A stretch of 64,000 bases of DNA, taken from positions 31,136 to 95,135 of the IMG/VR virus record IMGVR_UViG_2609460060_000003; one strand, written 5' to 3'. A model generated the notes under the pieces. That model was not told the DNA's origin and searched no databases. It saw nothing but the letters and a program-made list of their open reading frames with translations. Positions 3,412-32,153 of this stretch are shown in pieces (positions within the stretch are counted from its first letter, which is position 1; each line of letters opens with the position of its first letter). The translations under genes were made by a program, and so were the position numbers. This stretch comes from a virus. Its lineage: Duplodnaviria > Heunggongvirae > Uroviricota > Caudoviricetes.

Positions 3412-4227
3412 TTAGCCAAGGCGCTTACGGCGCAGTTTCATTGACTTTTTGCGGGCAAGTTTTGCCGCGCCGGTCTGGGCTTTTCGACGCGCTTTTTTCA
3501 GCGCCGATTTTTGAGCCGCAGTCAGACGTTTTTTACGCAGGCGTTTACGGATGAGTTTGATCTCACCGTTACGAACAACCTTCTTAAATGCTTCAGTCAG
3601 CATTTCATCAGAAGTGCCAGCAACAACAAACGCCGCTTCCAGTTCGTCGCGGTCGTCGCTATCTAAACCAGCGATAGAGGCACCAACATCAGCAGCAGCG
3701 TCGTCGTCTTCATCGTCAGCCAGTGCTTCGATCAGGTCATCATCTACACCGCATGCTGCGAGGAAGTCAGCAACATTTGCCCATGCTTCGTTATAGGCAT
3801 CGTCCTGTTCTTCTGTAACTTCGGCGTCGTCGTCATCAGAGATACCAGCGATAGCCTGAACGAAACCATCAAGGGAGTCGAAAGTCAGATCACCGCTATC
3901 AGCCCAGGCGAAAACGGCGTCGGCCGCATCACTCAACGCATTCTGCATAGCACTTCGATTTGCAGCTTCCAGAATCATCTGGTGCGCCTGTTCGACGGTC
4001 CATTCTTTACCGTCTTTCCCTTCCAGGATTTGCTCAGGAGCCGGGGCAGATGGAACGTTATCGTTAGTCTGTGCCGCCGGTTCCGGATTATTATTAATAA
4101 CCGGATCTGTTGGCGGTTCGGCGCTTGCTCGGGCAGACTCCATCAGCTGCACAGGATCAGAGTTCAAAGCGAAACGGGACAGTCCATTCCCCAAAAATGC
4201 CCCGGATTGAAAAAAGTTTTTGCTCAT
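3412..4227 (-). CDS. acidic assembly/scaffold-like protein with basic C-terminal tail
   Basis: 271 aa with Asp/Glu runs (DDDDAEVTEEQDD, DDEDDDAAAD) and C-terminal Lys/Arg-rich segment. Confidence 0.4.
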   Translation of the reverse strand: MSKNFFQSGAFLGNGLSRFALNSDPVQLMESARASAEPPTDPVINNNPEPAAQTNDNVPSAPAPEQILEGKDGKEWTVEQAHQMILEAANRSAMQNALSDAADAVFAWADSGDLTFDSLDGFVQAIAGISDDDDAEVTEEQDDAYNEAWANVADFLAACGVDDDLIEALADDEDDDAAADVGASIAGLDSDDRDELEAAFVVAGTSDEMLTEAFKKVVRNGEIKLIRKRLRKKRLTAAQKSALKKARRKAQTGAAKLARKKSMKLRRKRLG

Positions 4228-4236
4228 TGTATTCCC

Positions 4237-5826
4237 TTACTTAATAAGCAGCGGTACGCCCTGGATACGACGGGCTACGCCAGTCGGGCAGCAGGCCCAG
4301 ACTACTTCCCATTTATCGAATTCCGCCTGCGTAACTTTCAGCACATACGGTTCTGTACCGTCAGCATCAGGATCACGAGGAGCCACCAGAGCGCCGGAGG
4401 CGACAAAGCGATCTAAAAGTTTGGTCATCCCTTTAGTCAGGCCAGCCGCAGTAATACCGTCCGGGCTATGCTTCATCTGTCGGGCTAACTGGACAAAGAA
4501 ACGGCTGATTGCATTCATCAGGGATGGGACGTGCTGGAAGTGCAGATAGTTATCCTGCGTGCAGCAAGTTAAAGCATCGTCGATGATCATCTGGCCAGAG
4601 GTGCCAACAGATACTTTATTGAGACGGCCCTTGACCATTGCTTCTTCGTCCGGGGTATCTTCCGGATACAGCGGTTGAATTGACGCACGAGCAATGACGG
4701 CACGTTCTTCACCAGCCGGTGAGTAATGCCAACCGCCGACATCAGAGTTTTTCTTGACGCCATGAGCTTTCGCCGCATACGCCACGCCAGACAGACCAAA
4801 GACCACACGGGATTGGGTCCATTTGTCTTTGCAGGAGAACGGGTAGTGATAGACAGAACAGCTTACATAATCGGTACCAAGTAAACCGGTACCCTCAACA
4901 GCTGTTAGTGCTTCTGCGTACCTTAATGTCGGTTTGACATCAAAGAAGCCATCAATCAGGCGATCTGCACAGATTTTACCTAATGCGGTGATAGCCGCAT
5001 TGTCATAGCAGCCCAGGCCAAGAACAGCGGTGTACATGTACGGCGCATTGTTCAGCACTTTCACCGCACGCAGGTACGCAGCGGTTGAGATTTTCGACTG
5101 ATCACCGTTGGTACCACCAGTGAACGCCAACGATTTTTTGTTTGTTACTTTCGCTGTAGAAATCAGATCTTCATTAACAACCGCGCGCAGATATTTAGAA
5201 CGAGCTTCCAGAGCCGTAGGCAGATAACACAAGCGGCCCATGTCATCTTTCGCTTCTTCCGCCAAAGACACAGTGTGTGTCTCCAGGGTCGTTACCACAC
5301 CAAGCGAAGTCGTCTGGGTCAGTTTTAAGATGAAGCGTTCATTACTCGCGCTGTCCGCTGTTGCCGTTTCGATGGTTAACTCACGGGTAGGTGAAATACA
5401 CGGATCACCATCATCAACGTAGATAGCAAAGGCTTCGCCGCTATCAAGTTCAATTTCAGAACCGTATGGCAACGCACTGTAAGCCGGTTCGCCTGATTCA
5501 TCGAACATAATAATCGGGAACTTCGCATCATCCGGAACAGCACGGACAACATAACCAGACGTTTGCTGAATAGCTTCGTACACATGGCGAATTGGTTCGA
5601 ACTGTGAGCCGGAAGACGGCTTCAGCGGTTCGCCGAGAACATCTTCGTAATTGGACTCAGTAACCGCCAGAACAGTAAACGGCTTGCCACGCGCAAATAC
5701 GCCAATACCAGCCCACAAGCTGCTATTTAATGCAACACCGGTAGATAACGTCGCATCGGCATTGATCGGGCTAACCGCGACGCCGGATGCATTACCTAAT
5801 GACTGTTGAATTGAATATTGAGACAT
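4237..5826 (-). CDS. tail sheath protein (P1 gene 22 position)
   Basis: 529-aa ORF between major head gene and tube genes; size and position as expected for a myovirus sheath. Confidence 0.5.
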   Translation of the reverse strand: MSQYSIQQSLGNASGVAVSPINADATLSTGVALNSSLWAGIGVFARGKPFTVLAVTESNYEDVLGEPLKPSSGSQFEPIRHVYEAIQQTSGYVVRAVPDDAKFPIIMFDESGEPAYSALPYGSEIELDSGEAFAIYVDDGDPCISPTRELTIETATADSASNERFILKLTQTTSLGVVTTLETHTVSLAEEAKDDMGRLCYLPTALEARSKYLRAVVNEDLISTAKVTNKKSLAFTGGTNGDQSKISTAAYLRAVKVLNNAPYMYTAVLGLGCYDNAAITALGKICADRLIDGFFDVKPTLRYAEALTAVEGTGLLGTDYVSCSVYHYPFSCKDKWTQSRVVFGLSGVAYAAKAHGVKKNSDVGGWHYSPAGEERAVIARASIQPLYPEDTPDEEAMVKGRLNKVSVGTSGQMIIDDALTCCTQDNYLHFQHVPSLMNAISRFFVQLARQMKHSPDGITAAGLTKGMTKLLDRFVASGALVAPRDPDADGTEPYVLKVTQAEFDKWEVVWACCPTGVARRIQGVPLLIK

Positions 5827-5886
5827 AACTTTCCCTGTTATGCGCCCCGCACGGGGGCGCTATGTTAAACGGAGAACTTCCCCTGA

Positions 5887-7614
5887 TTACTCAGAGTCAC
5901 CGGCATCAATCGTGTCGCCGCTTATGAAGTTAAGCCCGCCTTTTTTGGCCATTGTCAGCGTTACACGAGTGAAGTAATCAGCGCCGTTGCGTGGGTGCAT
6001 ATCGTTGATAGCCGAACCCCACAGCGTGGTACGGTTGACCAGCGCCGGAGTGGTCGGATGCTGGAACGGGATGGCCGGGACAGCATCACCAGTCACGAAG
6101 CCTGCTTTACCCGGATTTTCATCACGGACGTAGCACAGCACATCCATCGAGCTGAACTGAATGTTCTCTGTCGTTAAGTTCTTACAAATACCAGCAGGTA
6201 CTTCGTACACTTTCACGTTACCGAACAGGGTACCGATGTAGTGAACATACGGAGTCTGGATATAGTCTTCGGCTGGCTGGAAGAAATCCTTCGGCAACTG
6301 TTTGAAGAAAGATGCTGCATCAGCACCAGCAAACATCCCCATCGCACCAGAAGATTTAACGCGCTCAATAATGTCGCGATATACAGTCTGGAATTTGCCA
6401 CGAATGATGGTTGCCCATACATCAAAGGACTGGTTAACCGGCAGAGCGATGTCAAAGGTGTCGGTCGCAAGAGTACGCCAGATCATGATGCGAAGACGCA
6501 GCATATCCTGTTCATGAGACAGGTATTCCTTCAGGGTGCGGAACTGTAGGGAACCCAGGTCCAGACCAAATTCACGCTGTGCTTCATACGCCGCCTGTAC
6601 CGTGTGCTCAGCCGCGATAACGAACTGGCTTGGGAACAGGGTGTATTTCTTCATTTCGTGGTTGATCAGCGGGATCAGCTCAGGAGCGGCTTCAATATTG
6701 ATTTCCGTCTCAATTGCGATCTCAGTGCCTTTATCCGGCGCTTTGGAGAACGACAGGGCAATCTGACCAATGTTGTAGTTCAGAGAGCAGGTAACAGTGA
6801 TTTGCTCACCAGCAGCATTAGTAAACGAGTGAAGTAGGCTGCCGGAACCGTTATCAACAACAGACTTAATACGGTTAACGTAGATATTAGTGCGACCTTT
6901 TCGGATTGGTACATTCTGGCCTTCGAAGTCTTCCATCTTGAAGGTTGCGGTTTTGCTGGTGCCATCGGAGCTTGCCACCAGCACATAGCGGCGGCGTAAC
7001 TGGCTGTACACACCGACGGATTGCATGTCCAGAACATCACCAGCAGCATAAGAACCAAAAGAGGAACCTGCCACGTTAAAGACTTCATAGATGTCGGACT
7101 GGTCACGCGTAACCGGAATGAAGGTACACGCATCAGCGGTAGCTGCCCCCAACTGAACAGGCAGGATCATCGCGAGGAATAAAGGCAGACGCATAACACC
7201 GTCAGAAACGCTCATCATCTCTGCTGCGACGGATTCCAGCATCGCTTTATTAGTGGCATCCATGCTATTGCGGGTGGACTCAATCAGGCAGTTTTCCAGC
7301 GTCTGGTGGCAGGAGGCCAGAATTTCCGGACGCGGCATAGATTTATGTGCTGCGGCGTAGTCAGCCAGTGCACTTGCCCACGCTGTAGCGATTTGAGCGG
7401 TGGCATTATCAGAGATACCCGCAAAAACCGGGTCTTTACGTGCAGCTTCAAGGATAGATGCGGCACGCGCGGCATCATCTTTAATGAATTGGTTATCAGT
7501 ACCGAACTGCGCAGTGCTTGCCCAGCCAAGCACAGCTTTAGAGCGTTTTGCGATATCTGCAATACGATTCTGGTATTCGCGTAAGTTACTCAATTTACTC
7601 TTCCTTAAACACAA
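5887..7614 (-). CDS. major head protein (P1 gene 23 position)
   Basis: 575-aa ORF next to parB, first gene of the operon, preceded by late-promoter-like element. Confidence 0.5.
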   Translation of the reverse strand: MCLRKSKLSNLREYQNRIADIAKRSKAVLGWASTAQFGTDNQFIKDDAARAASILEAARKDPVFAGISDNATAQIATAWASALADYAAAHKSMPRPEILASCHQTLENCLIESTRNSMDATNKAMLESVAAEMMSVSDGVMRLPLFLAMILPVQLGAATADACTFIPVTRDQSDIYEVFNVAGSSFGSYAAGDVLDMQSVGVYSQLRRRYVLVASSDGTSKTATFKMEDFEGQNVPIRKGRTNIYVNRIKSVVDNGSGSLLHSFTNAAGEQITVTCSLNYNIGQIALSFSKAPDKGTEIAIETEINIEAAPELIPLINHEMKKYTLFPSQFVIAAEHTVQAAYEAQREFGLDLGSLQFRTLKEYLSHEQDMLRLRIMIWRTLATDTFDIALPVNQSFDVWATIIRGKFQTVYRDIIERVKSSGAMGMFAGADAASFFKQLPKDFFQPAEDYIQTPYVHYIGTLFGNVKVYEVPAGICKNLTTENIQFSSMDVLCYVRDENPGKAGFVTGDAVPAIPFQHPTTPALVNRTTLWGSAINDMHPRNGADYFTRVTLTMAKKGGLNFISGDTIDAGDSE

Positions 7615-7644
7615 GGCACTTGTGTGAATCCCTTTTCGGAAGAG

Positions 7645-7673
7645 ATTTTATTGAAAGTCACTTGTTGACTTTC
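7645..7673 (-). promoter_or_regulatory. late-promoter-like element upstream of major head gene
   Basis: Inverted repeat GAAAGTCA-N5-TGACTTTC; on the coding strand AACAAGTGACT + 5 nt + TAAAAT; same motif and spacing at 28487-28511 and 63021-63043. Confidence 0.4.
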
Positions 7674-7729
7674 TCGTGACAAGCAATTTTTTTATTTTTT
7701 TCGGGAGTAGGGGAGGAAGGTAAAATCCA

Positions 7730-7815
7730 AGGTGAAATCGTGGCGATTTCACCTTGAAATTTTAGATGGATTTACTTTAAAAACAGTTGGTTAATAGTGA
7801 AATTTGAATGGCGAA
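7730..7815. other. parS: parS partition site (centromere)
   Basis: Heptamer ATTTCAC/GTGAAAT and hexamer TCGCCA/TGGCGA boxes flanking an AT-rich central segment, directly downstream of parB stop. Confidence 0.75.
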
Positions 7816-7818
7816 AGT

Positions 7819-8820
7819 TTAAGGCTTCGGCTTTTTATCGAGGCTCTTTCTAAGGATATGCCCAATCATCCTGTCGAGTTCTTCCTGTAGCTCTTTTGAA
7901 AGTCGATTAAACTCATAAGAAAATGCACGGCCTTTCACGCGCTTCCTTGCAAAGCGATCCTTGTCCTCAAATTTCCATAATTCAGTAACTACGGACTTAT
8001 CTTTAGAACCTTTATCCGTGAGTAGTGAGGCTTCCTTTGTTATCAAGCGCAGGATTTTATTTTTAACTTCATCTTCGGCCATTTCTTCAATGGATAAGAT
8101 GTCGTTTATTTCCGGGGATATGTTTTGAATAAGCTGATCAAACTCTAAATTCTTGTTCCCCATTTCGTCGCCAACAGCACAAAGCGTTTTGTAGTCCGAA
8201 AAGGTTAATTCCGACTGAACAGGGAAAAGGGCGACTAATTCTTCCGGAGCACTCGCTGCCTGGAGAGCACGCGTGACCTTCGCCTGAGACAGCCCTTCTT
8301 TGGCTGCAATATCCTTCTGACTCATCCCATCATTTTTCATTCGCATCAAACGCAGACCTATTTCTCGAATGCTGTGCTGCAATGCTGTCTGAACGTCTTT
8401 CGCTAAATTTTGCGCTTCCTGAACGCTGATCTCCTGGTCCGTGACTAAAACCCGCAACCCTACGTTCTCTAAGATGGCAGAAGCTCGACGCCGGGAACCA
8501 TCCAAAATTTCAATTTTCCCTGTAGCCCGTCTAACACCTATTGCAGGGTAAAATTGCTGATGCTTAATAGTGCTTCGGATACTTTTTAATGATTTTGGCG
8601 TAAGAGATGCCTGGTCACGCCCGTTGTTATGCTGATCAACAAAGGTATCGCTTTCTACCTGGTTCGGAGGTATTACCTCTTCAATAAATGTGGCCTGGCG
8701 ACCAGTTGATAACTTGAATACCTGCTCGACTCGATCGCCAGAGGCTGAAGAACTATCAAATCCGCTTAATATTGAAGGATTAAGGGTTCGCCCAATTGTT
8801 GGTCTGTTTTTCTTTGACAT
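7819..8820 (-). CDS. parB: ParB partition protein
   Basis: 333 aa, N-terminus MSKKNRPTIGRTLNPSILSGF matches recalled P1 ParB; followed by parS. Confidence 0.9.
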   Translation of the reverse strand: MSKKNRPTIGRTLNPSILSGFDSSSASGDRVEQVFKLSTGRQATFIEEVIPPNQVESDTFVDQHNNGRDQASLTPKSLKSIRSTIKHQQFYPAIGVRRATGKIEILDGSRRRASAILENVGLRVLVTDQEISVQEAQNLAKDVQTALQHSIREIGLRLMRMKNDGMSQKDIAAKEGLSQAKVTRALQAASAPEELVALFPVQSELTFSDYKTLCAVGDEMGNKNLEFDQLIQNISPEINDILSIEEMAEDEVKNKILRLITKEASLLTDKGSKDKSVVTELWKFEDKDRFARKRVKGRAFSYEFNRLSKELQEELDRMIGHILRKSLDKKPKP

Positions 8821-8836
8821 GGGGGGTTCTTACTCC

Positions 8837-10033
8837 TCAGTTAGATCTGATAAATTCAATACGGTCAAAAACTGCTTTAGCAAAATCTTCCGCGGCAATT
8901 CGCGCGTTCTTCAATGCATCAGCACTACCAACATACGTTGCCGGGTTAGCTGAAATAACAGTGTCAAAAGACTCGCCGCAACGTTCAAAACCGTCAAGGC
9001 GAGGGAGGACGACATCGAGCATATCCCCACCGAACACTTCTTTAGCCAGGCTATGGCAATACTTATGATCTGCCTTGTTACTCAACTTGGACATAAAACC
9101 AATGTTAGTCGCAAGCTGGCACTCGCAGCCTTCATCCGAAATGAGTTTTACCAACTCAGGAAGGCGGGCAACGTATTTAAGCGATGAGTGGAAATCGACA
9201 GTTGCTGGCGGCAGAGGTGTAAACAGTATATTGGCCGAGGCCAAAGCATTTTTCAGGAAGGCGTCAAGGTGAGGACCACTATCAACGAGGATAAAGTCAT
9301 AATCGCTCTTCAGCTTATCAATCACATTTTCTTTCAGGACAGCATGGATGTTCTGACCCGGTAGATGCTCATTGCACAGCTCTCTCCAATCGGATGCAAT
9401 AAAGGCATCGTCAATCGACGCAGGCATAACGTCAACCCCAGGTACAACAGAAGGAACAATAAACTCCTCTAACAGCTCTTCACGGCTTACATTCTGCAAC
9501 ATAGCCTGTGCAGATGTTGCGTTTACGATACCAATAGAGTGTTTATGGCTTAAAAACATCGTTGCTGAAGATTGCGGATCAAGGTCAATAACCAGAATCC
9601 TTAAATCTTCCATCAGAAGATGAGGGTGAGCACGCATTGCATGCGCCAGAGAAACCGTCGATACAGTTTTAGACACACCGCCTTTAAGATTGGAGATGAA
9701 AATCACATACGCTTCGCTGTAGCGATCCCGGTATTTTGGCACTCCGCGATGTTCATATATGTCAATGATGTTCTGAATTGACATCGCATATTTCATTGAA
9801 GAGCCAGCAGGGCGTTTATCGAAAACATAACCCTTTTCTTCCATTTCACTTACGGCATAGTCAACGTTCGCTCGAGTCAGTAGAGGCAGTTTTGCCAGTG
9901 CCGCTTTCGCATAGACCTGGTAAAACTCGTTCGCGTGTAGCTCATCCTTTTGCAACTGTACTTGTTCAGTCAGAACATTGAGCATTCTGTTTGCTCTTTG
10001 AGCAACCTTGTGAAGCTGGCTGGAATCACTCAT
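8837..10033 (-). CDS. parA: ParA partition ATPase
   Basis: 398 aa; deviant Walker A KGGVSKT; N-terminal extension typical of type Ia ParA. Confidence 0.9.
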   Translation of the reverse strand: MSDSSQLHKVAQRANRMLNVLTEQVQLQKDELHANEFYQVYAKAALAKLPLLTRANVDYAVSEMEEKGYVFDKRPAGSSMKYAMSIQNIIDIYEHRGVPKYRDRYSEAYVIFISNLKGGVSKTVSTVSLAHAMRAHPHLLMEDLRILVIDLDPQSSATMFLSHKHSIGIVNATSAQAMLQNVSREELLEEFIVPSVVPGVDVMPASIDDAFIASDWRELCNEHLPGQNIHAVLKENVIDKLKSDYDFILVDSGPHLDAFLKNALASANILFTPLPPATVDFHSSLKYVARLPELVKLISDEGCECQLATNIGFMSKLSNKADHKYCHSLAKEVFGGDMLDVVLPRLDGFERCGESFDTVISANPATYVGSADALKNARIAAEDFAKAVFDRIEFIRSN

Positions 10034-10173
10034 CGAAAGTCATCCTTTATGCTGTATTTTTGAATTTAATTAAAAATGCTGCATAAAATAATAATGTATG
10101 CGTAGATGCTTGTACATAGCATTCTCTGCATGTTTGGTTCATTTTGCACGATAGAGAGTTGCAAGGAGGGCAC

Positions 10174-10194
10174 AAAAAAGCCCCGTTCAGGGGC
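10174..10194 (-). terminator. rho-independent terminator after the T5orf172-like gene
   Basis: Minus-strand GCCCC-TGAAC-GGGGC followed by TTTTTT, immediately 3' of the ORF ending at 10202. Confidence 0.6.
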
Positions 10195-10201
10195 ATCAGT
10201 G

Positions 10202-11011
10202 TTATTTGTTAAGAGCTGCGAATAATCGTTCGAAATCGATAGTATCTATAGCACGCGTAAGCGCCGGAAGTTCAGCCTCAAAGCACCCGTTTCGATCGTA
10301 AAAGAAGGGACCGAAGAGCGAGGCATGTTGGATTCTACTTCGCCCCAGTCCGGACACACAGTTAAGCCCATTACCGGCTAAAAGGCTAAAAAACTTCTCT
10401 GGATTATCGTGGTAAAGCTGGGAATCAATGGTGGCGGTTAACTCTTCCATAGGGAAGCACACCCGCCCTGTCTCCCAGGGATATTTAGTCCGAAGCGTAA
10501 ACATCGCTTTCAGCAATTCACATTGAGCGCGGATCGCGTCAGGTTCATAGCCAGATATGGAGACATAAGCCACATCCCTCATTCCTGCGTCATCTTTGAA
10601 AGTCACGATAGAAGTAACATCCAGTTCTTTTTCGAAAGAGCGAGCAGCATCTACTGGACGCTGAAGTAAATCATTCGACTTAATCCGCTCGAGAATCCCT
10701 CCCCACATATCATTTAGATATTCGATATGAGCCAAAACCTTATCAAGACACTCTCGTGTAAACCATTCAGTATGCCCGCCACCGGCGCTTTTCTCCCACG
10801 GCGCATTCCAGGGGAAAAAGGTTGCGTGTAAAGCCCGCTCAAGATTAACTATTGCCAAACGCGTACCACGATAGACCCGTGAAAGCGCAAAATCGGGATT
10901 CACTTGTAGCCCTTTAAACCGTGCCAATGGACCACATGAAATGCCGATTTTAAAAGTATCTCCGTTCTCCGGCACCAGAACGTAGAGGTAGTGTTGTTTC
11001 TCTTCTTGCAT
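10202..11011 (-). CDS. T5orf172/GIY-YIG-like domain protein with unassigned C-terminal domain
   Basis: 269 aa; YLYVLVPENGDTFKIGIS...LERALHATF...GGHTEWF fits the T5orf172 pattern (YxY-KIG-LH-EWF); own terminator; lies between incA and the parA promoter. Confidence 0.6.
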   Translation of the reverse strand: MQEEKQHYLYVLVPENGDTFKIGISCGPLARFKGLQVNPDFALSRVYRGTRLAIVNLERALHATFFPWNAPWEKSAGGGHTEWFTRECLDKVLAHIEYLNDMWGGILERIKSNDLLQRPVDAARSFEKELDVTSIVTFKDDAGMRDVAYVSISGYEPDAIRAQCELLKAMFTLRTKYPWETGRVCFPMEELTATIDSQLYHDNPEKFFSLLAGNGLNCVSGLGRSRIQHASLFGPFFYDRNGCFEAELPALTRAIDTIDFERLFAALNK

Positions 11012-11045
11012 ATCAATACCACTGCTTGATGAGAACCGCGCAAAT

Positions 11046-11302
11046 GTTGACTATGCGCGAAAGTTAATGTGAATAGTTGACTATGCGCGATGTGACTACA
11101 GTCAAAAGTTGACTGTAGTCGATTTAACTCCACCAAAAATCGACTATGTAAGATATTGTCGGGAGAAACGTTGACTATACGCGATGAAATGACCCTAAAA
11201 GCCATCTCAATAGCAGCTTGCAGAATATTGACGCCAGCAAAAATCCACCAGCGTCAACGAATGTCGCCTATAGTCAACTTCTCGCTATCGCATATAGTCA
11301 AT
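11046..11302. repeat. incA-type iteron array
   Basis: About 8 copies of a ~14-bp repeat (TTGACTATGCGCGA and variants) in both orientations, including a perfect palindrome GACTACAGTCAA-aag-TTGACTGTAGTC at 11093-11119. Confidence 0.7.
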
Positions 11303-11303
11303 A

Positions 11304-12224
11304 TTATGGATTGCGCTTATGGATCTGGAAGCCGATTTTCCTGCCGTTTTTTATCTCTGAAAATTTAAGATATTCAATAGCTTCCAAATCTTTCATGGCT
11401 TTTCTGATAACGCTATTTTGCACGCTAACGGATGATTTGAGATTAAGCCTCGCTCTAAGGCGCTCAATGCTGACAGGTGCCGGGTTGGCGGGTAGAGCCT
11501 CAAAGAATGTATACAGTACCTTGGCCGTCTCTTTGCGCCCTAGTTTATCCAGCATCTTCAGCTTCAGGATTCGCTTATAGTCAACATAGTAAAGTTCAGA
11601 TAGCTGTTTCTGCGGCTGGATCTCGATAACATCAAGCTCGGTATTCAGGCTGCTATATGCCAACAAGTTGACGTTAATGTTATTGAGATGACCTTTTGCC
11701 GCCGGGAAGCGGAATTTGACAACTGTCTGCTGAATGCGTGTCAGAGAGTCATCAATACTTTTACGGAACGCCTTTGAAAGGCGCTTACGTGGATAGCCGC
11801 ATCGATCGGCAAACTCGGAGAATGGCAGGGTGATTATGCCGTCATCATCAGGTGCGTAGTCAAACAACGCGGAGGTTATGCCCACCCACACCTTAAAATC
11901 AGTATCCATATCCAGGCGTGGACCATGAATTTCAATTCCCTCATAGCCTTCCTGCTCAACAATTTTGAGGCTTGATAGTTCTTCAGTTGCGTTCGTTGTG
12001 TTTGTTGTAACTGACGATCCGCGACGTAGCGCCACATTGGTAGATTTTAAGGTTGGCACAAACACACCTAAGCGCAACAAAGCGATGGGTTGTATAGTGC
12101 TGTTGTTATTGGGCTTCAGGCTGTGGATTTCTCCTGTATTTCCTGCAACTTCTTCAACGCTAAGGAAGCCTTTACTTTCTTCCGGCATCACGGTTTCTCC
12201 ATGTGTGGCGCGGCCTGACGTCAA
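11304..12224 (-). CDS. repA: RepA plasmid replication initiator
   Basis: Contains GPRLDMDTDFK and other segments recalled from P1 RepA; flanked by iteron arrays; true start may be the Met 12 codons in (12188). Confidence 0.8.
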   Translation of the reverse strand: MTSGRATHGETVMPEESKGFLSVEEVAGNTGEIHSLKPNNNSTIQPIALLRLGVFVPTLKSTNVALRRGSSVTTNTTNATEELSSLKIVEQEGYEGIEIHGPRLDMDTDFKVWVGITSALFDYAPDDDGIITLPFSEFADRCGYPRKRLSKAFRKSIDDSLTRIQQTVVKFRFPAAKGHLNNINVNLLAYSSLNTELDVIEIQPQKQLSELYYVDYKRILKLKMLDKLGRKETAKVLYTFFEALPANPAPVSIERLRARLNLKSSVSVQNSVIRKAMKDLEAIEYLKFSEIKNGRKIGFQIHKRNP

Positions 12225-12271
12225 TTTGGATGGCTGTTATCAACAGCTGTGAATATTCAGACTCTAAAATC

Positions 12272-12370
12272 GCTTACAGTCAATGTTTCTGTCGCGTATA
12301 GTCAACAATAAATCGCGTGCAGTCAACAATAAATCGTGCACAGTCAACATAAAATCGCGTATAGTCAATG
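12272..12370. repeat. incC-type iterons within oriR
   Basis: Direct repeats CGCGTATAGTCAAC / CGCGTGCAGTCAAC / CGTGCACAGTCAAC / CGCGTATAGTCAAT spaced at 22 bp. Confidence 0.75.
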
Positions 12371-12371
12371 T

Positions 12372-12480
12372 TGATCCCATTTCAGGCCAGTAATGACGCG
12401 GCTTACAGCGATCCGGGATCTTCTTTGGATCTTCCTAGGTTCTCTTTAGGATCTGTTTATTGGATCTATGCTGTGGATAA
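12372..12480. other. oriR GATC-rich segment with DnaA box
   Basis: Six GATC sites within ~95 bp, DnaA box TGTGGATAA at 12472-12480; a second near-consensus box TTATCAACA at 12237-12245 beside the repA start. Confidence 0.7.
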
Positions 12481-12523
12481 GTTGAATAAACCGGCCAACA
12501 AAGCCGGTTGGAAGGAAGTCATA

Positions 12524-12916
12524 TTATTCTACGCTTTCGATAAGAAGACCATGTTCATAACATTTAAGCTCATCGCCTTCATACAGGAATTGGTATCCAA
12601 CACCACCATCTTCATGGACATTAGGGAATAACTCATAACTCACTGAAGAGCAAATCACACCAATGCAGCGATCAACTCCTTCTCGTTCTTCAGTGCTGAA
12701 AAAATCCTCTTCGGTAAGAACATGAGTACATTGCTCATCAGCATAGGTCGGAAATACATGCTCAATGCAATCCGGGTGTTTTAAACCAAGCTGATCGGCA
12801 AGCTCGAAAGCACGACGGTATTGTTCAGATCCTGGCTTGCCAACAGTGATTTGCTCAATTTTGTAGATTGAAGTCGCTTTGTTGATAGTTTGCTTTACTG
12901 TTACTTTATCAGACAT
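12524..12916 (-). CDS. hypothetical protein (130 aa)
   Basis: ORF upstream of oriR; no recognisable motif. Confidence 0.4.
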   Translation of the reverse strand: MSDKVTVKQTINKATSIYKIEQITVGKPGSEQYRRAFELADQLGLKHPDCIEHVFPTYADEQCTHVLTEEDFFSTEEREGVDRCIGVICSSVSYELFPNVHEDGGVGYQFLYEGDELKCYEHGLLIESVE

Positions 12917-12927
12917 AAAAATCCCTT

Positions 12928-13260
12928 TTAGTTACCGCTAATAGCTCGGTTGTAATCATTAACGTTGCGATTCTTCCTGTTAATCCCCATCAGCATCGTT
13001 TCTGTATCGAGGATATACGCTGGCAGATCATCAAAATATTCACTGCTAAACTCTGGCATCCTGCACATAAATGCACTTTTGGGGGCAGGGTGGTTAACCT
13101 TTGTCGGCGTCGGCGTTAAATTCGCTGATCGACTCCCGGAGCAACCGCTGAGTGTCAGCAGGAATACGCTGGCGAACATTACCCGCCGCAACCAGTTGTT
13201 TCTGAACTTCAGCTTTTCGTTCCATTTGCCTGTCAGCATACTTGGCTTGTTCTGATTCAT
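12928..13260 (-). CDS. lipoprotein, o-spanin-like
   Basis: Signal peptide with lipobox LTLSGC; 3' end of the adjacent gene overlaps it in another frame. Confidence 0.5.
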   Translation of the reverse strand: MNQNKPSMLTGKWNEKLKFRNNWLRRVMFASVFLLTLSGCSGSRSANLTPTPTKVNHPAPKSAFMCRMPEFSSEYFDDLPAYILDTETMLMGINRKNRNVNDYNRAISGN

Positions 13261-13543
13261 TTTTCACTTCCTGGCTGTGAAAATGTTGCTCTGCTTTGTT
13301 CATCGTCTCAATGGTCTGGTTAAGATCCATTATTGACTTATCACGTTCCTTAACAGCCTGATCAAGACTGCCAATTTTCTCCATGGCTTGCTTTAGCTGA
13401 TGACGTTCCCATGCAAACCCAGCACCAACAAGTGCGCAAATCAGAACAAGAACACCAGTAGCAGCAAGTTTCTCCTTCAAAGACAAAGCTGTTTTTAACG
13501 TAGAAAAGAATGACATGTCTTCCTCCTGAAGAAAAATTATCAA
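13094..13543 (-). CDS. i-spanin-like membrane protein
   Basis: N-terminal TM segment ATGVLVLICALVGAGFAW then coiled-coil-like periplasmic region; overlaps the lipoprotein gene (Rz/Rz1-type arrangement); likely start at 13516. Confidence 0.45.
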   Translation of the reverse strand: MIIFLQEEDMSFFSTLKTALSLKEKLAATGVLVLICALVGAGFAWERHQLKQAMEKIGSLDQAVKERDKSIMDLNQTIETMNKAEQHFHSQEVKNESEQAKYADRQMERKAEVQKQLVAAGNVRQRIPADTQRLLRESISEFNADADKG

Positions 13544-13555
13544 TGAAGTCCTTTG

Positions 13556-14401
13556 TTACTGTGCCGCTTTGTTTAATTCATCAAGAACAGAATCAGGAAC
13601 CAAAGCGGCGACTGCGCTGGATGTGCTGGTCTTATTTGCTGATGCTTCCGCAAGCGCGGTACCGATAGCATGGTTATAAGCAGTTATGGCTACGTTGGCG
13701 CTTTCCTTCGCTCGTTCATACTGCTGTTGTAACGCAGTTGTGGGCGCTGTTGTCTGGTTGAAAACAACCCCAAACTGTTCAGTTGCTACTTTCAGAGATT
13801 CAATTTGCTCTTCTGTTAGTGCTGGTGGGGGAGTGGCAGTGCCGCCGCCTGAACCAGAGCCTGACGAGCTTCCTGAGCCAGTGTTAAGGGTCTGGTTAAT
13901 CTCCCCCATAGCAGCGACTAAACTTGATGTATTAAGCGCGTTAACAGCGTCCTCAAGCGATTTAGTAATATTCACATCACCAATGGCAATAGAGATCGGC
14001 AGTTCTGAAACTTCTCGCTCATTAGCACGGCAGTAAACATCCCAACCAATATCGAGTTGAAGCAGCATTGACAGATCTGCATAACCAGCCAACAGGTCCG
14101 CGTGCTTAGTTGCCAGTTCTCCAATGTTCGTTAAGCCGGTTGTGGTTGTTCTGATCGTTGAAACATAGCTGGTAATAGTGTCGGGATAGACAATTGTATC
14201 CAGAATTAATCCGGTCAATTCTTCTGCAAGCAGTTTTGCTGTGTTAGCACTGTTTCGTGCCGATGTTATGGCACCAGGTGTTTTCATCCCACCGGCGGCG
14301 GCCAATTTTTTATATGCGGATAACTGGTAGTCTTTTTCCAGCATGATATCTCCTAACTTACCTGAACCAGGCCGTCTCCGGCTGCAACGGTAGAGCCGCA
14401 T
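13556..14401 (-). CDS. hypothetical protein with Gly/Ser-rich linker
   Basis: 281-aa ORF; GSGSSSGSGSGGG linker; start may be internal. Confidence 0.4.
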   Translation of the reverse strand: MRLYRCSRRRPGSGKLGDIMLEKDYQLSAYKKLAAAGGMKTPGAITSARNSANTAKLLAEELTGLILDTIVYPDTITSYVSTIRTTTTGLTNIGELATKHADLLAGYADLSMLLQLDIGWDVYCRANEREVSELPISIAIGDVNITKSLEDAVNALNTSSLVAAMGEINQTLNTGSGSSSGSGSGGGTATPPPALTEEQIESLKVATEQFGVVFNQTTAPTTALQQQYERAKESANVAITAYNHAIGTALAEASANKTSTSSAVAALVPDSVLDELNKAAQ

Positions 14402-14637
14402 GAAACAGGATCACCAACGCATACGATCCCTTTCCCGTTGACGGTAAACCATGCCCTGGTTGATATAGCTTGCCCGCCGTGCGTGCTGTTCCCATCGGTA
14501 TGCTGTGCATATTGCTTACCATCAACTAACACTTCGACTCCGTTGACTTTAAGTAGTGGTTCACTCTCTACAGGAGGCCTGGATGGGAATCCTCCGTGCC
14601 CCGAACAAATGCTGTCTTTTGTTGCAATATTTGCCAC
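14353..14637 (-). CDS. PAAR-like small protein
   Basis: 94 aa, Cys/His/Gly-rich (ICSGHGG, VNGKGIVCVGDPVSCGSTV) in PAAR-repeat style. Confidence 0.45.
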   Translation of the reverse strand: MANIATKDSICSGHGGFPSRPPVESEPLLKVNGVEVLVDGKQYAQHTDGNSTHGGQAISTRAWFTVNGKGIVCVGDPVSCGSTVAAGDGLVQVS

Positions 14638-14718
14638 GTTATCACCAATGATTTGCTCTGATTTTTATTATTTTAACTTAGGTTGTTTGTGGTCTACATG
14701 GCGTTTACTTATTACAAA

Positions 14719-14735
14719 ATTGCTCTAATAAATAT
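14719..14735 (+). promoter_or_regulatory. C1 operator-like site
   Basis: ATTGCTCTAATAAATAT, 16/17 to recalled C1 operator consensus ATTGCTCTAATAAATTT; upstream of uhr-hrdC-dmt. Confidence 0.55.
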
Positions 14736-14806
14736 TGTTTTTTATGTCGTGTTTTCGGTACCATTCAGCCATCGCCCTTCAATGGGCATTTGTTTGGAGT
14801 CGTCAG

Positions 14807-15091
14807 ATGCAGATGGAGCTAATAAGCCGCAAGGAGTTCGATAGCCGTGTAACCAGCGGTGAACTCGACAACTTGCAGGCTATCAAGGTGAAAGAAGGCT
14901 TTTGCCTCATTGGGAATCAGAGCGGAACAAATCGCGTTTTTATGCTTCGCCGTACGGATTTGAAGCCATTTGTCTGGAAGAACGAAATTGGTCCCAGCTC
15001 ATACGCTCAAACGAGGGGGTGCCACAACCTGGCCTTTTTCTACAAAGACGAGCTTTCTGTGGTTGATATTCAAGGGTTACAACATGTTTAA
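14807..15091 (+). CDS. uhr: small protein upstream of hrdC
   Basis: ORF whose stop overlaps the hrdC start (ATGTTTAA); longest frame begins at 14735. Confidence 0.4.
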
Positions 15092-15989
15092 GCACTGGAA
15101 AAACATTACTATTTATAAACTTTCTCGTGAGGCGGATCTGACCGACTTAGAAGATAAAAAGAAAATGATCCTTTTCACGCCATGCGGTAGTCAGGATATG
15201 GCCAAGTTCGGTTTTGTATCGCCATTTGGTGATAATTCCGAAGTTATCGCTATGCATGGAAATGGTTTTATCCTTGTTGAAGCAAAGCGCGAAACAAAAA
15301 TTCTTCCCCCGCCGGTTATCCAGCGAGCTATTCAAGAAAAAATTGAAAAACTTGAGCAAGAACAAGCGCGTAAACTGAAGAAAACAGAGAAGGACTCCCT
15401 GAAAGACGAAGTTCTACATTCTCTTCTGCCACGGGCTTTTTCAAAGTTTTCTGTTATCCAGGCGATCTACGACGGTTCAACTAAACGTATCTATATCAAT
15501 GCCAGCGCGCGGCAGGCAGAGGATATGCTCGCGCTTATGCGTAAGTCTCTGGGGTCTCTTCCTGTTGTTCCCCTGAGTGTTGAAAATCCCATTGAATTAA
15601 CGCTGACCGACTGGGTACGTGATGGTAGTGCTCCACAGGGATTTCAAATGGGGGATGCGGCAGAACTTAAGGCAGTGCTTGAGGATGGCGGTATTGCCCG
15701 AGTGAAAAAGCAGGATTTGGGAAGCGATGAAATTTCCACACACTTGGAAGCAGGCAAGCTCGTCACTAAGTTGGCACTCGACTGGCAGAACCGCATTAAA
15801 TTTACACTGGACCATAACTTCAGCCTTACCAGCGTCAAATTTGCGGATGAATTGCTTGAGCAGAACTCTGATATTGATAGTGAAGATGTTGCGCAGCGAC
15901 TGGACGCAGATTTCTTCCTGTTGACCAGTGAAATTTCGTGCCTGGTTGATGCTCTGGTAAATGCCCTTGGTGGAGAGGCTAAGCAGTGA
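15084..15989 (+). CDS. hrdC: RdgC homolog (recombination-associated protein)
   Basis: 301 aa; long identical stretches to recalled E. coli RdgC ([59 protein letters not shown]). Confidence 0.85.
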
Positions 15990-18574
15990 AAGAGCTGTGC
16001 TATGGATCTGTTTGCAGTGGAATTGAAGCCGCGAGTATTGCCTGGGAACCGTTGGGTATGCGTCCGGCGTGGTTTGCTGAAATCGAGCCTTTTCCATCTG
16101 CCGTTCTTGCGCACCGCTGGCCCCATGTCGCCAACCTTGGCGACATGACAAAACTTGCCAAAAAAGTCCTGGCTGGGGAAATCGAATCCCCTGATGTGCT
16201 CGTCGGGGGAACACCTTGTCAGGCATTCAGTATCGCTGGATTACGTGGTGGGCTTGATGATGAGCGTGGCGCGCTAACTTTAAAGTATGTGGAGCTTGCA
16301 AATGCAATTGACGACAAACGGGCTGAGTCATTTCTCAAACCAGCCGTTATCGTCTGGGAAAATGTCCCAGGAGTCTTGTCATCGGCAGATAACGCCTTCG
16401 GATGTTTCCTTGCCGGATTGGCTGGAGAAGATGCGCCATTTGAACCAGGTGATCGACCTGAATCAGGAAAAAGTAACGCGTTCTGGCGGTGGGATGGCAA
16501 AACCGGTTGCCATGCTCCAAAGTGGCCGCAGTGTGGTTGTATTTATGGACCGCAGCGAAAGGTGGCCTGGAGAATCCTTGATGCCCAATACTTCGGAGTG
16601 GCACAACGACGCCGACGCGTGTTTGTTGTCGCAAGTGCTCGAACAGACCTCGATCCCGCAACGGTACTTTTTGAGTTCGAAGGCGTGCGCCGGGATATTG
16701 CGCCGAGCAGAGGCGAGGGGAAGGAAGTTGCCGGAAATGTTGGAAATGGCATTAAAAGCGGGAGCCATTGGGATAACCCTGTAAATCCGCACCCGACACT
16801 TAACCAGTCACACAATACTGGCGGGATCGGCGCAAGTAACCAGGAGATTTTTGCGCAGCGCGGAAGTGGGCTTGTTGGTGCTTATCGAATGGTTGCATTT
16901 GGCGAATATGCTGATGATGAGACTGCTTCTACTGTCAAGGCCAGAGATTTTAAAGATGCAACCGATTTAGCAGTTTTCAGTAGTACTGGTGCTGGTATTT
17001 GGCGTGAAGGTGCAGGCACTCTTCGTGCCAGATCACAAGAAAGTCACGAACATCTGGCAGTGATGGCTATTCATGGAACACAAGATCCTGATGTTAATTG
17101 TGAATTGGCACATACTATTGGTCGTAACCATGGTCAAGAAAATGCAGTCGTAGCTTTTTCCTGCAAAGATTATGGACAAGATGTTTCTATTGAATGTTCT
17201 CCGACTTTACGATCTGGTAATGCTGTTAATAGCAATCCAAATGCAGGATGCCCACCAGCTGTTGCGTATTCGCTACAACATGCACAAATTGGGCGAAAAG
17301 ATGATGCTGGACCGCAGGGTAAAGGGTGGCAAAAAGAGATAAGTTTTACTCTTGATTCCCGCGCTACAGCTGACGCCGTTGCGTTATCTTTTGGGGGGCA
17401 GAAAAGTATTGAAAAAGGCAATTTAGGTGAGAATGGTTACTTACCTCATATGATGAGTGTTCGCCGTCTTACCCCTGTTGAATGTGAAAGGCTGCAAGGT
17501 TTTCCTGATGGGCATACGTTGATCCCTACGGAAAAGCGTAAAAAAGTTTCTTCAGATGAACTGGCATACCTTCGCAATAACTATCCTGATTTAAGTGAAG
17601 AAGAGGCCGCGATGCTTGCAGCTGACGGACCGCGTTACAAAGCGATCGGCAATAGTATGGCGATACCAGTAATGCGCTGGATTGGCGATCGGATTGCCAA
17701 GGCTGCATGTCGGCAGAAGGAAGGGAGTGAAACAAAAGAGCGAAAAGTTAAACCAGCGGCAGAATTCGAACGGTCCATATTCAAATGGGCTGGTGGAAAA
17801 TTTGGTGTTCTGGAACAAATCTTTCGCTATTTGCCAGAAGGGAAGCGCCTGATTGAACCTTTCGTTGGTGGCGGAGCTGTCTTCATGAATGCCGGATACC
17901 AGGAAAATCTGCTAAATGATGTGAATGCTGACCTGATTAACTTTTACAAGACTTTGCAACGTGAGGAACGTTCACTTATCACTCTGGCGCATCGGTTTTT
18001 CCAGGACTACAACACACAGGAAGGATACCTGGCAGTACGGAGTGCGTTTAACAAACAAGTCTATGATGATTTACATCGCGCAGCGGCGTTTTTGTTCCTG
18101 AACCGACATTGTTTTAACGGATTGACGCGTTACAACCAGGCCGGTGAGTTCAATGTCGGTTATGGGAAGTATAAAACTCCGTATTTCCCATTACAGGAGA
18201 TGGAAGCCTTCCTCGGTGCGGAAGGGCGGTCTGAGTTTGTATGCGGTGATTTTGCAGCGGTGATTGAAGCTGCCGGAGAAGGTGATGTCATCTTTTGCGA
18301 TCCGCCGTATGAACCGCTTCCAAATACAGAGGGATTCACGAACTATTCCGGTCATGACTTTAAGTTTGAAGAGCAAAAACGCCTGGTGTCTCTGTTGACG
18401 GATGCTCATCGTCGAGGTGCAAAGGTTCTCATTACTAACAGTGGCGCGCCAAACATCAGAGAGCTTTATCATGACAGTGGCTTCAGAGTGGAACATCTTT
18501 TTGCCAGACGTTCTGTGTCTTGTAAGGGGGACACTCGAGGTGTAGCTCATGACGTTTTGGGTATATTGCTCTAA
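15986..18574 (+). CDS. dmt: bifunctional DNA methyltransferase (N-terminal C5-cytosine, C-terminal Dam-like N6-adenine)
   Basis: 862 aa; [12 protein letters not shown] (PCQ) and ENVPG motifs at N-terminus; FVGGGAVF and FCDPPYEP (DPPY) motifs at C-terminus. Confidence 0.8.
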
Positions 18575-31455: not shown

Positions 31456-32153
31456 AGATTGCTTTAGTTTTTCGCTCTGGTGGTGACTATAACGCTTCCG
31501 ATGTGCAGTGGCTGGTTAATCAACTGCCAAAAGACTATGAAATTATTTGCCTGACAGACCTGAAGTGTTTACATGTACCTGGCGTCAAAGTTATCCCATT
31601 GATCAACCAGTGGCAAAAGTGCCGTGGCTGGTGGGCGAAAATCGAGTTGTTCCGACCGGATATAACCGATGATCTGTTCTATCTGGATTTGGACACGGTT
31701 ATTGCCGGTGATATACGCCCAATCCTAGAGCATCCACCAACCAGCTTCACCATGCTTAGGGATTTTTACCATCCACAATATCGTGGCAGCGGTGCCCTGT
31801 GGATACCAAATAGTGTTAAAGCGCATATCTGGAGTTCATTCTGGCAAGATCCGGAAGGTTGGATTTCTCGTTGTGTCACTACTGAGTGCTGGGGTGACCA
31901 GGGGTTCTTACGAAAGGTTATGGGCGATGATACACCAGCATTTCAGGATCTGTATCCAGGATGGTTTGTAAGTTACAAGGCCGATGTTGTGGAACCTGGT
32001 TCAAAATATGCGAGCGCGCGTTACTCCAGGGGGAATGGGGCATTACCAAAAGACTGCCGAATAATCTTTTTCCACGGCAAACCGCGACCTCGCGAAGTGT
32101 CAGAGGATTGGCTTCCCCTTATCAGCTCATTTTTTGAGCGAGAATCAGAATAA
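31452..32153 (+). CDS. putative glycosyltransferase-like protein (DxD-type)
   Basis: 233 aa; YLDLDTVI resembles a DxD motif; translationally coupled to the phosphatase gene. Confidence 0.35.

Follow-up and report, generated by a model that had tools for sequence, protein, structure and literature searches.

A T5orf172-domain gene at the par-side edge of the p0111 replicon cassette of P1-like phage-plasmids: a candidate homing-endonuclease-like gene

The window analysed here is a 64,000-nucleotide (nt) stretch of a P1-like phage-plasmid (IMG/VR record IMGVR_UViG_2609460060_000003, positions 31,136 to 95,135). Between an iteron array and the partition (par) promoter of this element lies ORF269, an open reading frame (ORF) of 269 amino acids (aa) with a nuclease-type N-terminal domain. 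The locus raises the question of what such a gene does inside a replication and partition control region. ORF269 is the last gene of the p0111 replicon cassette and most likely an accessory, selfish-type gene. As to its function, a tentative preference is given to a homing-endonuclease-like gene, free-standing and from the T5orf172 branch within the GIY-YIG superfamily, which would promote exchange of the cassette. This reading is favoured because the protein joins a catalytic domain to a variable module, and because the gene occupies an intergenic site beside essential genes, is present or absent at one locus, decays, and lies at the border of an exchanged block.

In canonical P1 (NC_005856), incA iteron 1 reaches the par promoter (Ppar) over a spacer of ~190 bp with no coding sequence between, as the earlier note had it in stating that P1 lacks a gene at this position. 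P1 has no gene of known role at the same place, yet ORF269 is annotated in hundreds of public records. When the ORF region was compared with P1, the match was limited to its first 33 nt (window 10100-10132, the Ppar region). A blastn comparison of window positions 5001-16000 with the P1 region gave 99.2% identity over 5100-10135 and 96.4% over 12386-15886, and between 10135 and 12386 the match was limited to a 59-nt patch of 76% identity within repA. A simple insertion into the P1 replicon, as the earlier note had it, is ruled out, as the whole block 10136-12385 is non-homologous to P1 and ORF269 belongs to a different cassette. The window does not fit the canonical P1 (IncY) layout of a P1-type repA, GATGTGTGCTGGAGGGA iterons and incA abutting Ppar. 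The cassette is the already named p0111 replicon, one of the two replicon types of P1-like phage-plasmids (PMC9603915), and in this element it takes the place of the IncY cassette, with the DnaA-box half of oriR on one side and Ppar on the other. The features of the region, in window coordinates, are as follows.

10136 to 12385, minus strand: exchangeable replicon cassette (2.25 kb) with origin iterons, repA, incA-like iterons, ORF269 and terminator; non-homologous to P1 by blastn against NC_005856
10202 to 11011, minus strand: ORF269, ATG start, 269 aa, translation as in the earlier note; N-terminal T5orf172/GIY-YIG domain at aa ~6-105, linker at aa ~106-130, and a C-terminal domain of ~140-165 aa, possibly winged-helix-like
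10174 to 10194, minus strand: intrinsic-terminator-like hairpin and T-run, from a terminator scan and the sequence, predicted to end the ORF269 transcript; cassette DNA, not P1
11042 to 11302, unstranded: incA-like iteron array of the p0111 replicon, from repeat families and inverted pairs in the sequence
11304 to 12188, minus strand: repA of p0111 type, Rep_3 family, 294 aa in the RefSeq annotation (the mechanical ORF reaches 12224)
12265 to 12370, unstranded: five origin iterons TCGCGTATAGTCAAC at 21-bp spacing, the cassette-specific half of oriR
12386 to 12500, unstranded: P1-backbone half of oriR, with the DnaA box TTATCCACA and a GATC cluster, outside the cassette
10088 to 10116, minus strand: P1-type Ppar, with its -35 element near 10116, directly outside the cassette boundary
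7819 to 10033, minus strand: parA (8837-10033) and parB (7819-8820), the conserved neighbours downstream of ORF269

Relatives of the protein were sought by word-indexed searches of 5.8 billion proteins (carried out twice), by HMMER over 1.84 billion representatives, in GTDB, IMG/VR and JGI metagenomes, and by tblastn against PLSDB and INPHARED. The exhaustive HMMER search returned three further full-length lineages only: P0004 (44% identity), P0009 from Salmonella enterica, and P0011 from a faecal metagenome (25-30% identity). The other ~160 matches share the N-terminal domain only. The total of four full-length lineages allows neither a phylogenetic test nor a deep alignment for structure prediction. 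All three relatives sit between the Rep iterons and parA of P1-like elements, so that full-length homologues occupy one slot beside three iteron families. The Logan contig ERR2144811 (L004) carries a p0111-type replicon with a RepA 84% identical to that of the window, the Salmonella assembly GCA_007478465.1 (L006) has a P1/IncY-type RepA (83% to P1) with P1-type iterons, and the third locus (L007) contains a third iteron type, GGCTACTGNATGCTAC.

The comparison of L004 with L006 repeats the geometry seen between the window and P1. The two backbones are 94-98.6% identical at the nt level in the flanks, with ParA 99.7% and ParB 98% identical, and the cassettes between them (L004 6831-9019, L006 6656-8944) are non-homologous, each with its own T5orf172 gene. 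The cassettes start at the first origin iteron and end 63-84 nt past the ORF stop codon. The ORF thus stands exactly at the par-side edge of a swapped cassette in two independent backbone pairs, and L004 and L006 are a natural case of cassette swapping outside E. coli P1 proper. The origin shows the same split: oriR of the window is a hybrid in which the DnaA box and GATC cluster are P1 backbone (96% identical to P1) and the five adjoining iterons come from the p0111 cassette, and in L004 versus L006 the cassette likewise starts at exactly the first iteron.

The gene is present or absent at this one locus. It is found in the window, L004, L005/L006 and L007, and is absent from P1, from P7-type IncY plasmids and from NZ_CP146848, a Salmonella plasmid that shares 90% RepA identity with the gene-carrying L006. 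A remnant of the ORF was sought in the gene-less spacers of P1 and NZ_CP146848 and none was found. In L006 the sequence following the ORF aligns with the spacer and terminal iteron of the gene-less plasmid, which apparently places the ORF immediately upstream of a last iteron that is degenerate. Window and L004 share 44% identity in the ORF (N-terminal domain 63%, C-terminal domain 32%), 84% in RepA and 89% in ParA; between L006 and L007 the N-terminal domain is 62% and RepA 43% identical, a comparison of N-terminal domain with RepA that covers four lineages only. The idea that the nearest N-terminal-domain homologues are generally tied to plasmid replicons was ruled out by their contexts, which were a lytic-type phage beside HNH genes, a chromosomal island and a conjugative-plasmid region. 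The L007 region (3965-8307), from a faecal-metagenome relative of P1, combines its third Rep/iteron type with ParA of 401 aa and ParB of 321 aa, both of P7 length. Its ParA is 57% identical to that of P1 and its T5orf172 gene is closest to the Salmonella one, which shows further mosaicism of the maintenance region.

Read along the minus strand, the maintenance region of the window runs origin iterons, repA, second iteron array, ORF269, terminator, Ppar, parA and parB. ParA and ParB are 99.7% and 100% identical to the P1 proteins, and RepA is 42% identical to P1 RepA. The terminator stem-loop GCCCCTGAACGGGGC (10194..10180), followed by TTTTTTG to ~10174 on the minus strand, begins 8 nt past the ORF269 stop codon. 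The closest upstream iteron, TCGCGCATAGTCAACATTT (11060..11042), ends 30 nt before the ATG, and this gap is 22-30 nt in all four lineages (window, L004, L006 and L007). In the array, TCGCGNATAGTCAAC occurs four to five times in the ORF-proximal orientation (11042-11184), and two further copies beside the repA stop codon (11262-11302) have the origin orientation. Coordinates and terminator scan thus bear out the earlier description of a 269-aa ORF with its own terminator between iterons and the parA promoter. That description named the adjacent repeat as the last incA iteron; an iteron array is indeed there, but it belongs to the p0111 replicon and does not consist of the incA iterons of P1. 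ORF269 is a real gene, on the strength of its conservation in four lineages down to 25-44% identity and of a ratio of nonsynonymous to synonymous polymorphism (pN/pS) of 0.33.

Pseudo-ORFs derived from iterons occur in the window at 10900-11205 and 11156-11580 and are not genes. At L004 8001-8123 the gene caller lengthened the P0004 ORF by 41 codons across the iteron array, giving a repeated peptide ‘AYSQH’ that is not gene sequence. An iteron-like TTCGCTTATAGTCAAC lies within the repA coding region (window 11569-11585) and is kept in the 84% identical repA of L004 at ~7612-7626; this may be an extra RepA-binding site or plain coding constraint.

The N-terminal domain of the protein has the GIY-YIG alpha/beta fold with the conserved Tyr/Arg/Glu signature. 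A Pfam search matched aa 8-85 to PF10544 (T5orf172; E=1.2e-5, 26.2 bits), above the gathering cut-off of 20 bits, and so upheld the family assignment that the earlier note had made from a residue pattern. PHROG 681 (‘endonuclease’) matches aa 4-100 (E=1.6e-9), PHROG 2876 (function unknown) matches the full length, and the MUG113 match falls under its cut-off. Among 65 homologues Y10, K21, G23, R31, E58 and E82 are invariant, and H62, G79, T81, W83 and F84 are at least 90% conserved. These residues fit an active GIY-YIG-type site, if their roles are as suggested by likeness to I-TevI and to Odn (PMC8263062). ORF269 is ruled out as a known defence protein: PADLOC-DB 2.0 models gave 0 families at E <= 1 and NCBIfam models gave no match.

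The C-terminal domain is a separate, fast-evolving module. It remained without a family, as the earlier note had left it, in Pfam searches with four members and in a profile search of the PDB (~165 aa), and alignment with the RepA family by hhalign found nothing (probability 0.2, E 0.38). The structure was modelled twice with AlphaFold2 (AF2), from a 3-sequence alignment with a predicted local distance difference test (pLDDT) score of 63.7, too poor to be used alone, and from 65 sequences with a pLDDT of 76.3. In the second model the N-terminal domain is mostly >90, and the C-terminal domain, a distinct folded unit at moderate confidence, 50-84. Foldseek searches of the PDB with the C-terminal half of both separately built models placed iteron-initiator folds on top, none of them significant. 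The matches were RctB domains 2-3 (E 0.02-0.04, probability 0.66-0.69), the winged-helix 1 (WH1) domain of pPS10 RepA (1hkq, E 0.1-0.4), MSBI1.176 Rep WH1 (6h24, E 0.12-0.16) and several RepE54 entries, all with TM scores of 0.2-0.4. A Rep-WH1-like C-terminal domain is accordingly a weak hint from the models, a lead and not a result.

Selection was examined in 62 non-redundant loci from IMG/VR and metagenomes. The order repA-ORF-parA is kept in all 57 loci with both flanks, and the ORF is intact in 51 of the 59 informative copies, ~14% being disrupted. The disrupted alleles comprise five nonsense alleles at three independent positions (68, 112 and 228), one frameshift and two internal truncations; repA, parA and parB of the same loci carry no nonsense alleles. 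The pN/pS of 0.33 for the ORF compares with 0.03 for repA, 0.02 for parA and 0.08 for parB, constraint on the ORF being roughly a tenth of that on repA and parA. The Q228* allele is carried by the IMG/VR locus L046. In L051 (IMGVR_UViG_2645727563_000002, 5001-7513) the ORF breaks off past nt 294 and parA lies ~2.2 kb beyond, the nuclease domain having been disrupted by an insertion. Judged from these sequences, the gene is maintained, but as a fast-evolving accessory with which both plasmid and phage life can dispense.

In all four lineages, the coding strand from repA to the ATG lacks a match to a consensus sigma-70 promoter. The terminator scan found none between repA and the ORF in the window, L004 and L007, and its sole match in L006 is an inverted iteron pair. 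With neither terminator nor consensus promoter before the ORF, the simplest expectation is read-through from the RepA-autoregulated repA promoter. Expression across the iteron array is plausible on this basis, and it could possibly couple the ORF to copy control, as the earlier note proposed.

The cassette is widespread. It occurs in 404 plasmids of PLSDB (coverage of 80% or more and 97.6-100% identity in 391) and in 12 phage records including RCS47, SJ46, JL22 and phi456; ORF269 is fully linked to the p0111 repA in ~400 plasmids of E. coli type. The p0111 replicons of RCS47, SJ46, JL22 and pSvP1 are the same cassette as that of the window (97-100% nt identity) and structurally alike. RefSeq names the protein ‘GIY-YIG nuclease family protein’. 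It is ‘gp57’ of JL22, given without function in one of two papers that contain the ORF as an unknown (PMC9603915, PMC6906374), and in pSvP1 Venturini et al. count two inserted ORFs between repA and parA, ORF269 being one of them (PMC6906374). These papers do not remark on the cassette-edge position or on the homologues beside other iteron families (PMC9603915, PMC6906374), which are what is new here, the gene itself being already publicly annotated. A literature search found no functional study of ORF269. Some records are labelled differently: phage phi456 (OR339795.1, 39877-40877) calls its counterpart ‘terminase small subunit’, the P1 and RCS47 records call RepA a ‘replication helicase’, and PLSDB/MOB-suite types the 100%-identical turkey E. 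coli plasmid NZ_CP059910.1 as IncHI1B. An isolated 324-bp match (97.5% identity) to the par-side cassette end only, covering the ORF269 3′ end and the terminator, lies at 31273-31596 of the 231-kb E. coli plasmid NZ_AP027538.1 and may be a recombination scar at the cassette edge.

If ORF269 is a homing-endonuclease-like gene, the events can be pictured as follows. Low-level transcription of the gene would come from the repA promoter, which RepA autoregulates, by read-through over the iteron array, and the C-terminal domain of the protein would bind DNA. Near the incA/Ppar junction the protein would cut a gene-less P1-like genome, be it co-resident or superinfecting, and recombinational repair from the gene-carrying element would copy the gene. 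The linked replicon would be copied along with it; as there is no homology again before Ppar on one side and the DnaA-box half of oriR on the other, the cassette would be co-converted in full. Such repair would produce replicon swaps in P1-like elements that end right beside ORF269. The location fits this picture, the ORF being intergenic beside conserved genes with the cassette boundary 63-84 nt past its stop codon in two backbone pairs, and in phages T5orf172 genes have been described as putative homing endonuclease genes (HEGs) that neighbour essential genes and lie where exchanged regions end (PMC10448857).

A number of points weigh against the homing reading. Cleavage, the target site and gene conversion are inferred, as is every mechanistic step. 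Linkage to the p0111 repA is complete in the ~400 plasmids, with no clean pair of gene-plus and gene-minus elements within the p0111 type, and the sole near-clean pair (L006 versus L055) is 77-86% diverged with a blurred insertion junction. In Pfam and PDB profile searches the C-terminal domain showed no recognisable DNA-binding motif and none of the Zn-finger modules of ICP1-type T5orf172 HEGs (PMC10448857). The signature of a sweep, with cassette diversity below that of the flanks, was sought and not seen, and a pN/pS of 0.33 equally fits any weakly selected accessory gene. A more specific and rather improbable version, ‘replicon drive’, holds that a Rep-WH1-like C-terminal domain targets the iteron/incA region of a rival, and that the nuclease cut and its repair swap in the protein's own cassette. 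If true, the cargo co-converted by this homing endonuclease would be a determinant of plasmid incompatibility, and there would be an account of how cassettes (IncY, p0111 and others) come to be swapped at fixed boundaries between phage-plasmids that are otherwise near-identical.

The nearest rival is a replicon-directed nuclease like Odn, in which the WH1-like C-terminal domain reads the iterons or RepA of a rival and the T5orf172 domain cuts its origin or incA, so that competing P1-like plasmids are eliminated or converted. There is a precedent in Odn of phage ICP1, which joins a T5orf172 nuclease to a RepA_N-like domain and cuts the origin of PLE (an element like a phage-inducible chromosomal island) at iterons (PMC8263062). 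The gene abuts the iteron array in four of four lineages, in L006 apparently just upstream of a degenerate terminal iteron, and Foldseek put iteron-initiator folds first for the C-terminal half of both AF2 models. These structural matches are not significant (E >= 0.02, TM 0.2-0.4, C-terminal pLDDT 50-84), however, and profile-profile comparison of the C-terminal domain with the P1/p0111 RepA family found nothing (probability 0.2). The C-terminal domains of the window and L004 are 32% identical despite 84% identical RepA and nearly the same iterons, which is unexpected for a reader of cognate iterons. This explanation is considered unlikely, though not markedly so. On another reading ORF269 would be a single-gene anti-phage, superinfection-exclusion or abortive-infection nuclease carried as phage-plasmid cargo. 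T5orf172/GIY-YIG domains do recur in defence-island-like surroundings and in mobile elements, Mrr- and WYL-domain genes adjoin one remote homologue, and fast evolution with sporadic loss is typical of conflict genes. Yet no PADLOC model matches, there is no partner gene, full-length relatives are confined to one slot of P1-like elements with none in defence islands, and the variable cargo and defence regions of P1 are located elsewhere (PMC9603915); a defence role is given only a slim chance.

ORF269 might instead be a domesticated or accessory replication or partition factor, co-expressed with RepA, that tunes copy number, handcuffing or par expression. Its position between the copy-control iterons and Ppar is kept in four lineages, it is probably on the repA transcript given the lack of a terminator or consensus promoter, its linkage to the p0111 repA is complete in ~400 plasmids, and the T5orf172 protein CapR has been domesticated as a repressor (bioRxiv 10.1101/2020.11.28.402263; PMC10448857). 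The fully conserved catalytic signature argues against a lost nuclease function, however, and IncY P1, P7 and the Salmonella relative replicate and partition without the gene. About 14% of copies are disrupted, with repA, parA and parB unbroken beside them, and the ORF is ten-fold less constrained than repA and parA; a regulatory role appears improbable. The same decay could instead mark a functionless passenger, a remnant hitch-hiking with the successful p0111 replicon, given the frequent nonsense, frameshift and truncated alleles and a pN/pS that is high relative to the neighbours. Against this, a pN/pS of 0.33 lies far short of 1, the gene is intact in 86% of copies, and lineages of only 25-44% identity still share the frame and ~40 invariant residues, the catalytic set among them; little credence is given to this explanation. 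The regulatory, defence and passenger explanations are each less likely than the Odn-like and homing ones.

The classical GIY-YIG homing endonucleases include I-TevI and the Seg proteins of T4. I-TevI is a protein of ~250 aa with an N-terminal GIY-YIG catalytic domain of ~100 aa, a linker and a C-terminal DNA-binding region, and the Seg proteins of T4 are free-standing, intergenic GIY-YIG enzymes that cause localised marker exclusion and co-conversion of flanking DNA. ORF269 is similar to I-TevI in size and in the order of N-terminal catalytic domain, linker and C-terminal module. It differs from both I-TevI and Seg in belonging to the T5orf172 branch with KIG in place of YIG, and no Zn-finger, minor-groove helix or helix-turn-helix of the I-TevI type was detected by Pfam or PDB profile search. 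The free-standing, putative T5orf172 HEGs described by Barth, Dunham & Seed (2023, PMC10448857) in ICP1, T5-like and other phages likewise combine the catalytic domain with a fast-diversifying second module, and are intergenic beside essential genes at the boundary of exchanged regions, with a sporadic distribution and decayed copies. Unlike in these HEGs, the catalytic domain of ORF269 is N-terminal and its second module is not the CapR/DUF723/DUF4397 Zn-finger found in 87% of them (PMC10448857). Its host is a temperate phage-plasmid, its cargo is a replicon cassette rather than a lytic-phage gene block, and its homing is putative. Odn (ICP1 gp88; Barth et al. 2021, PMC8263062) shares with ORF269 a T5orf172 nuclease with a second domain and a tie to an iteron-type replicon, and in both systems replicon modules, the DNA-binding part of the initiator with its iterons, are swapped as units. 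The DNA-binding domain of Odn resembles PLE RepA_N in sequence (PMC8263062), whereas the C-terminal domain of ORF269 has no RepA similarity detectable by hhalign, and the two domains stand in the opposite order. The target of Odn is a parasite of the phage (PMC8263062), whereas the ORF269 gene lies inside its own element's replicon cassette.

In E. coli and Salmonella, P1-like phage-plasmids often carry extended-spectrum beta-lactamase (ESBL) and mcr genes. They are typed by two replicons, IncY and p0111, and replicons are exchanged between their near-identical phage backbones. A nuclease gene at the edge of swapped cassettes with three iteron families offers a concrete, testable mechanism for replicon swapping and hence for a change of incompatibility. 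If directed at iterons, ORF269 would be a second natural example of the Odn principle and a candidate tool for replicon-specific plasmid curing. As a homing-type gene, it would carry the idea of nuclease genes at the boundaries of genetic exchange from lytic phages over to plasmid maintenance modules.

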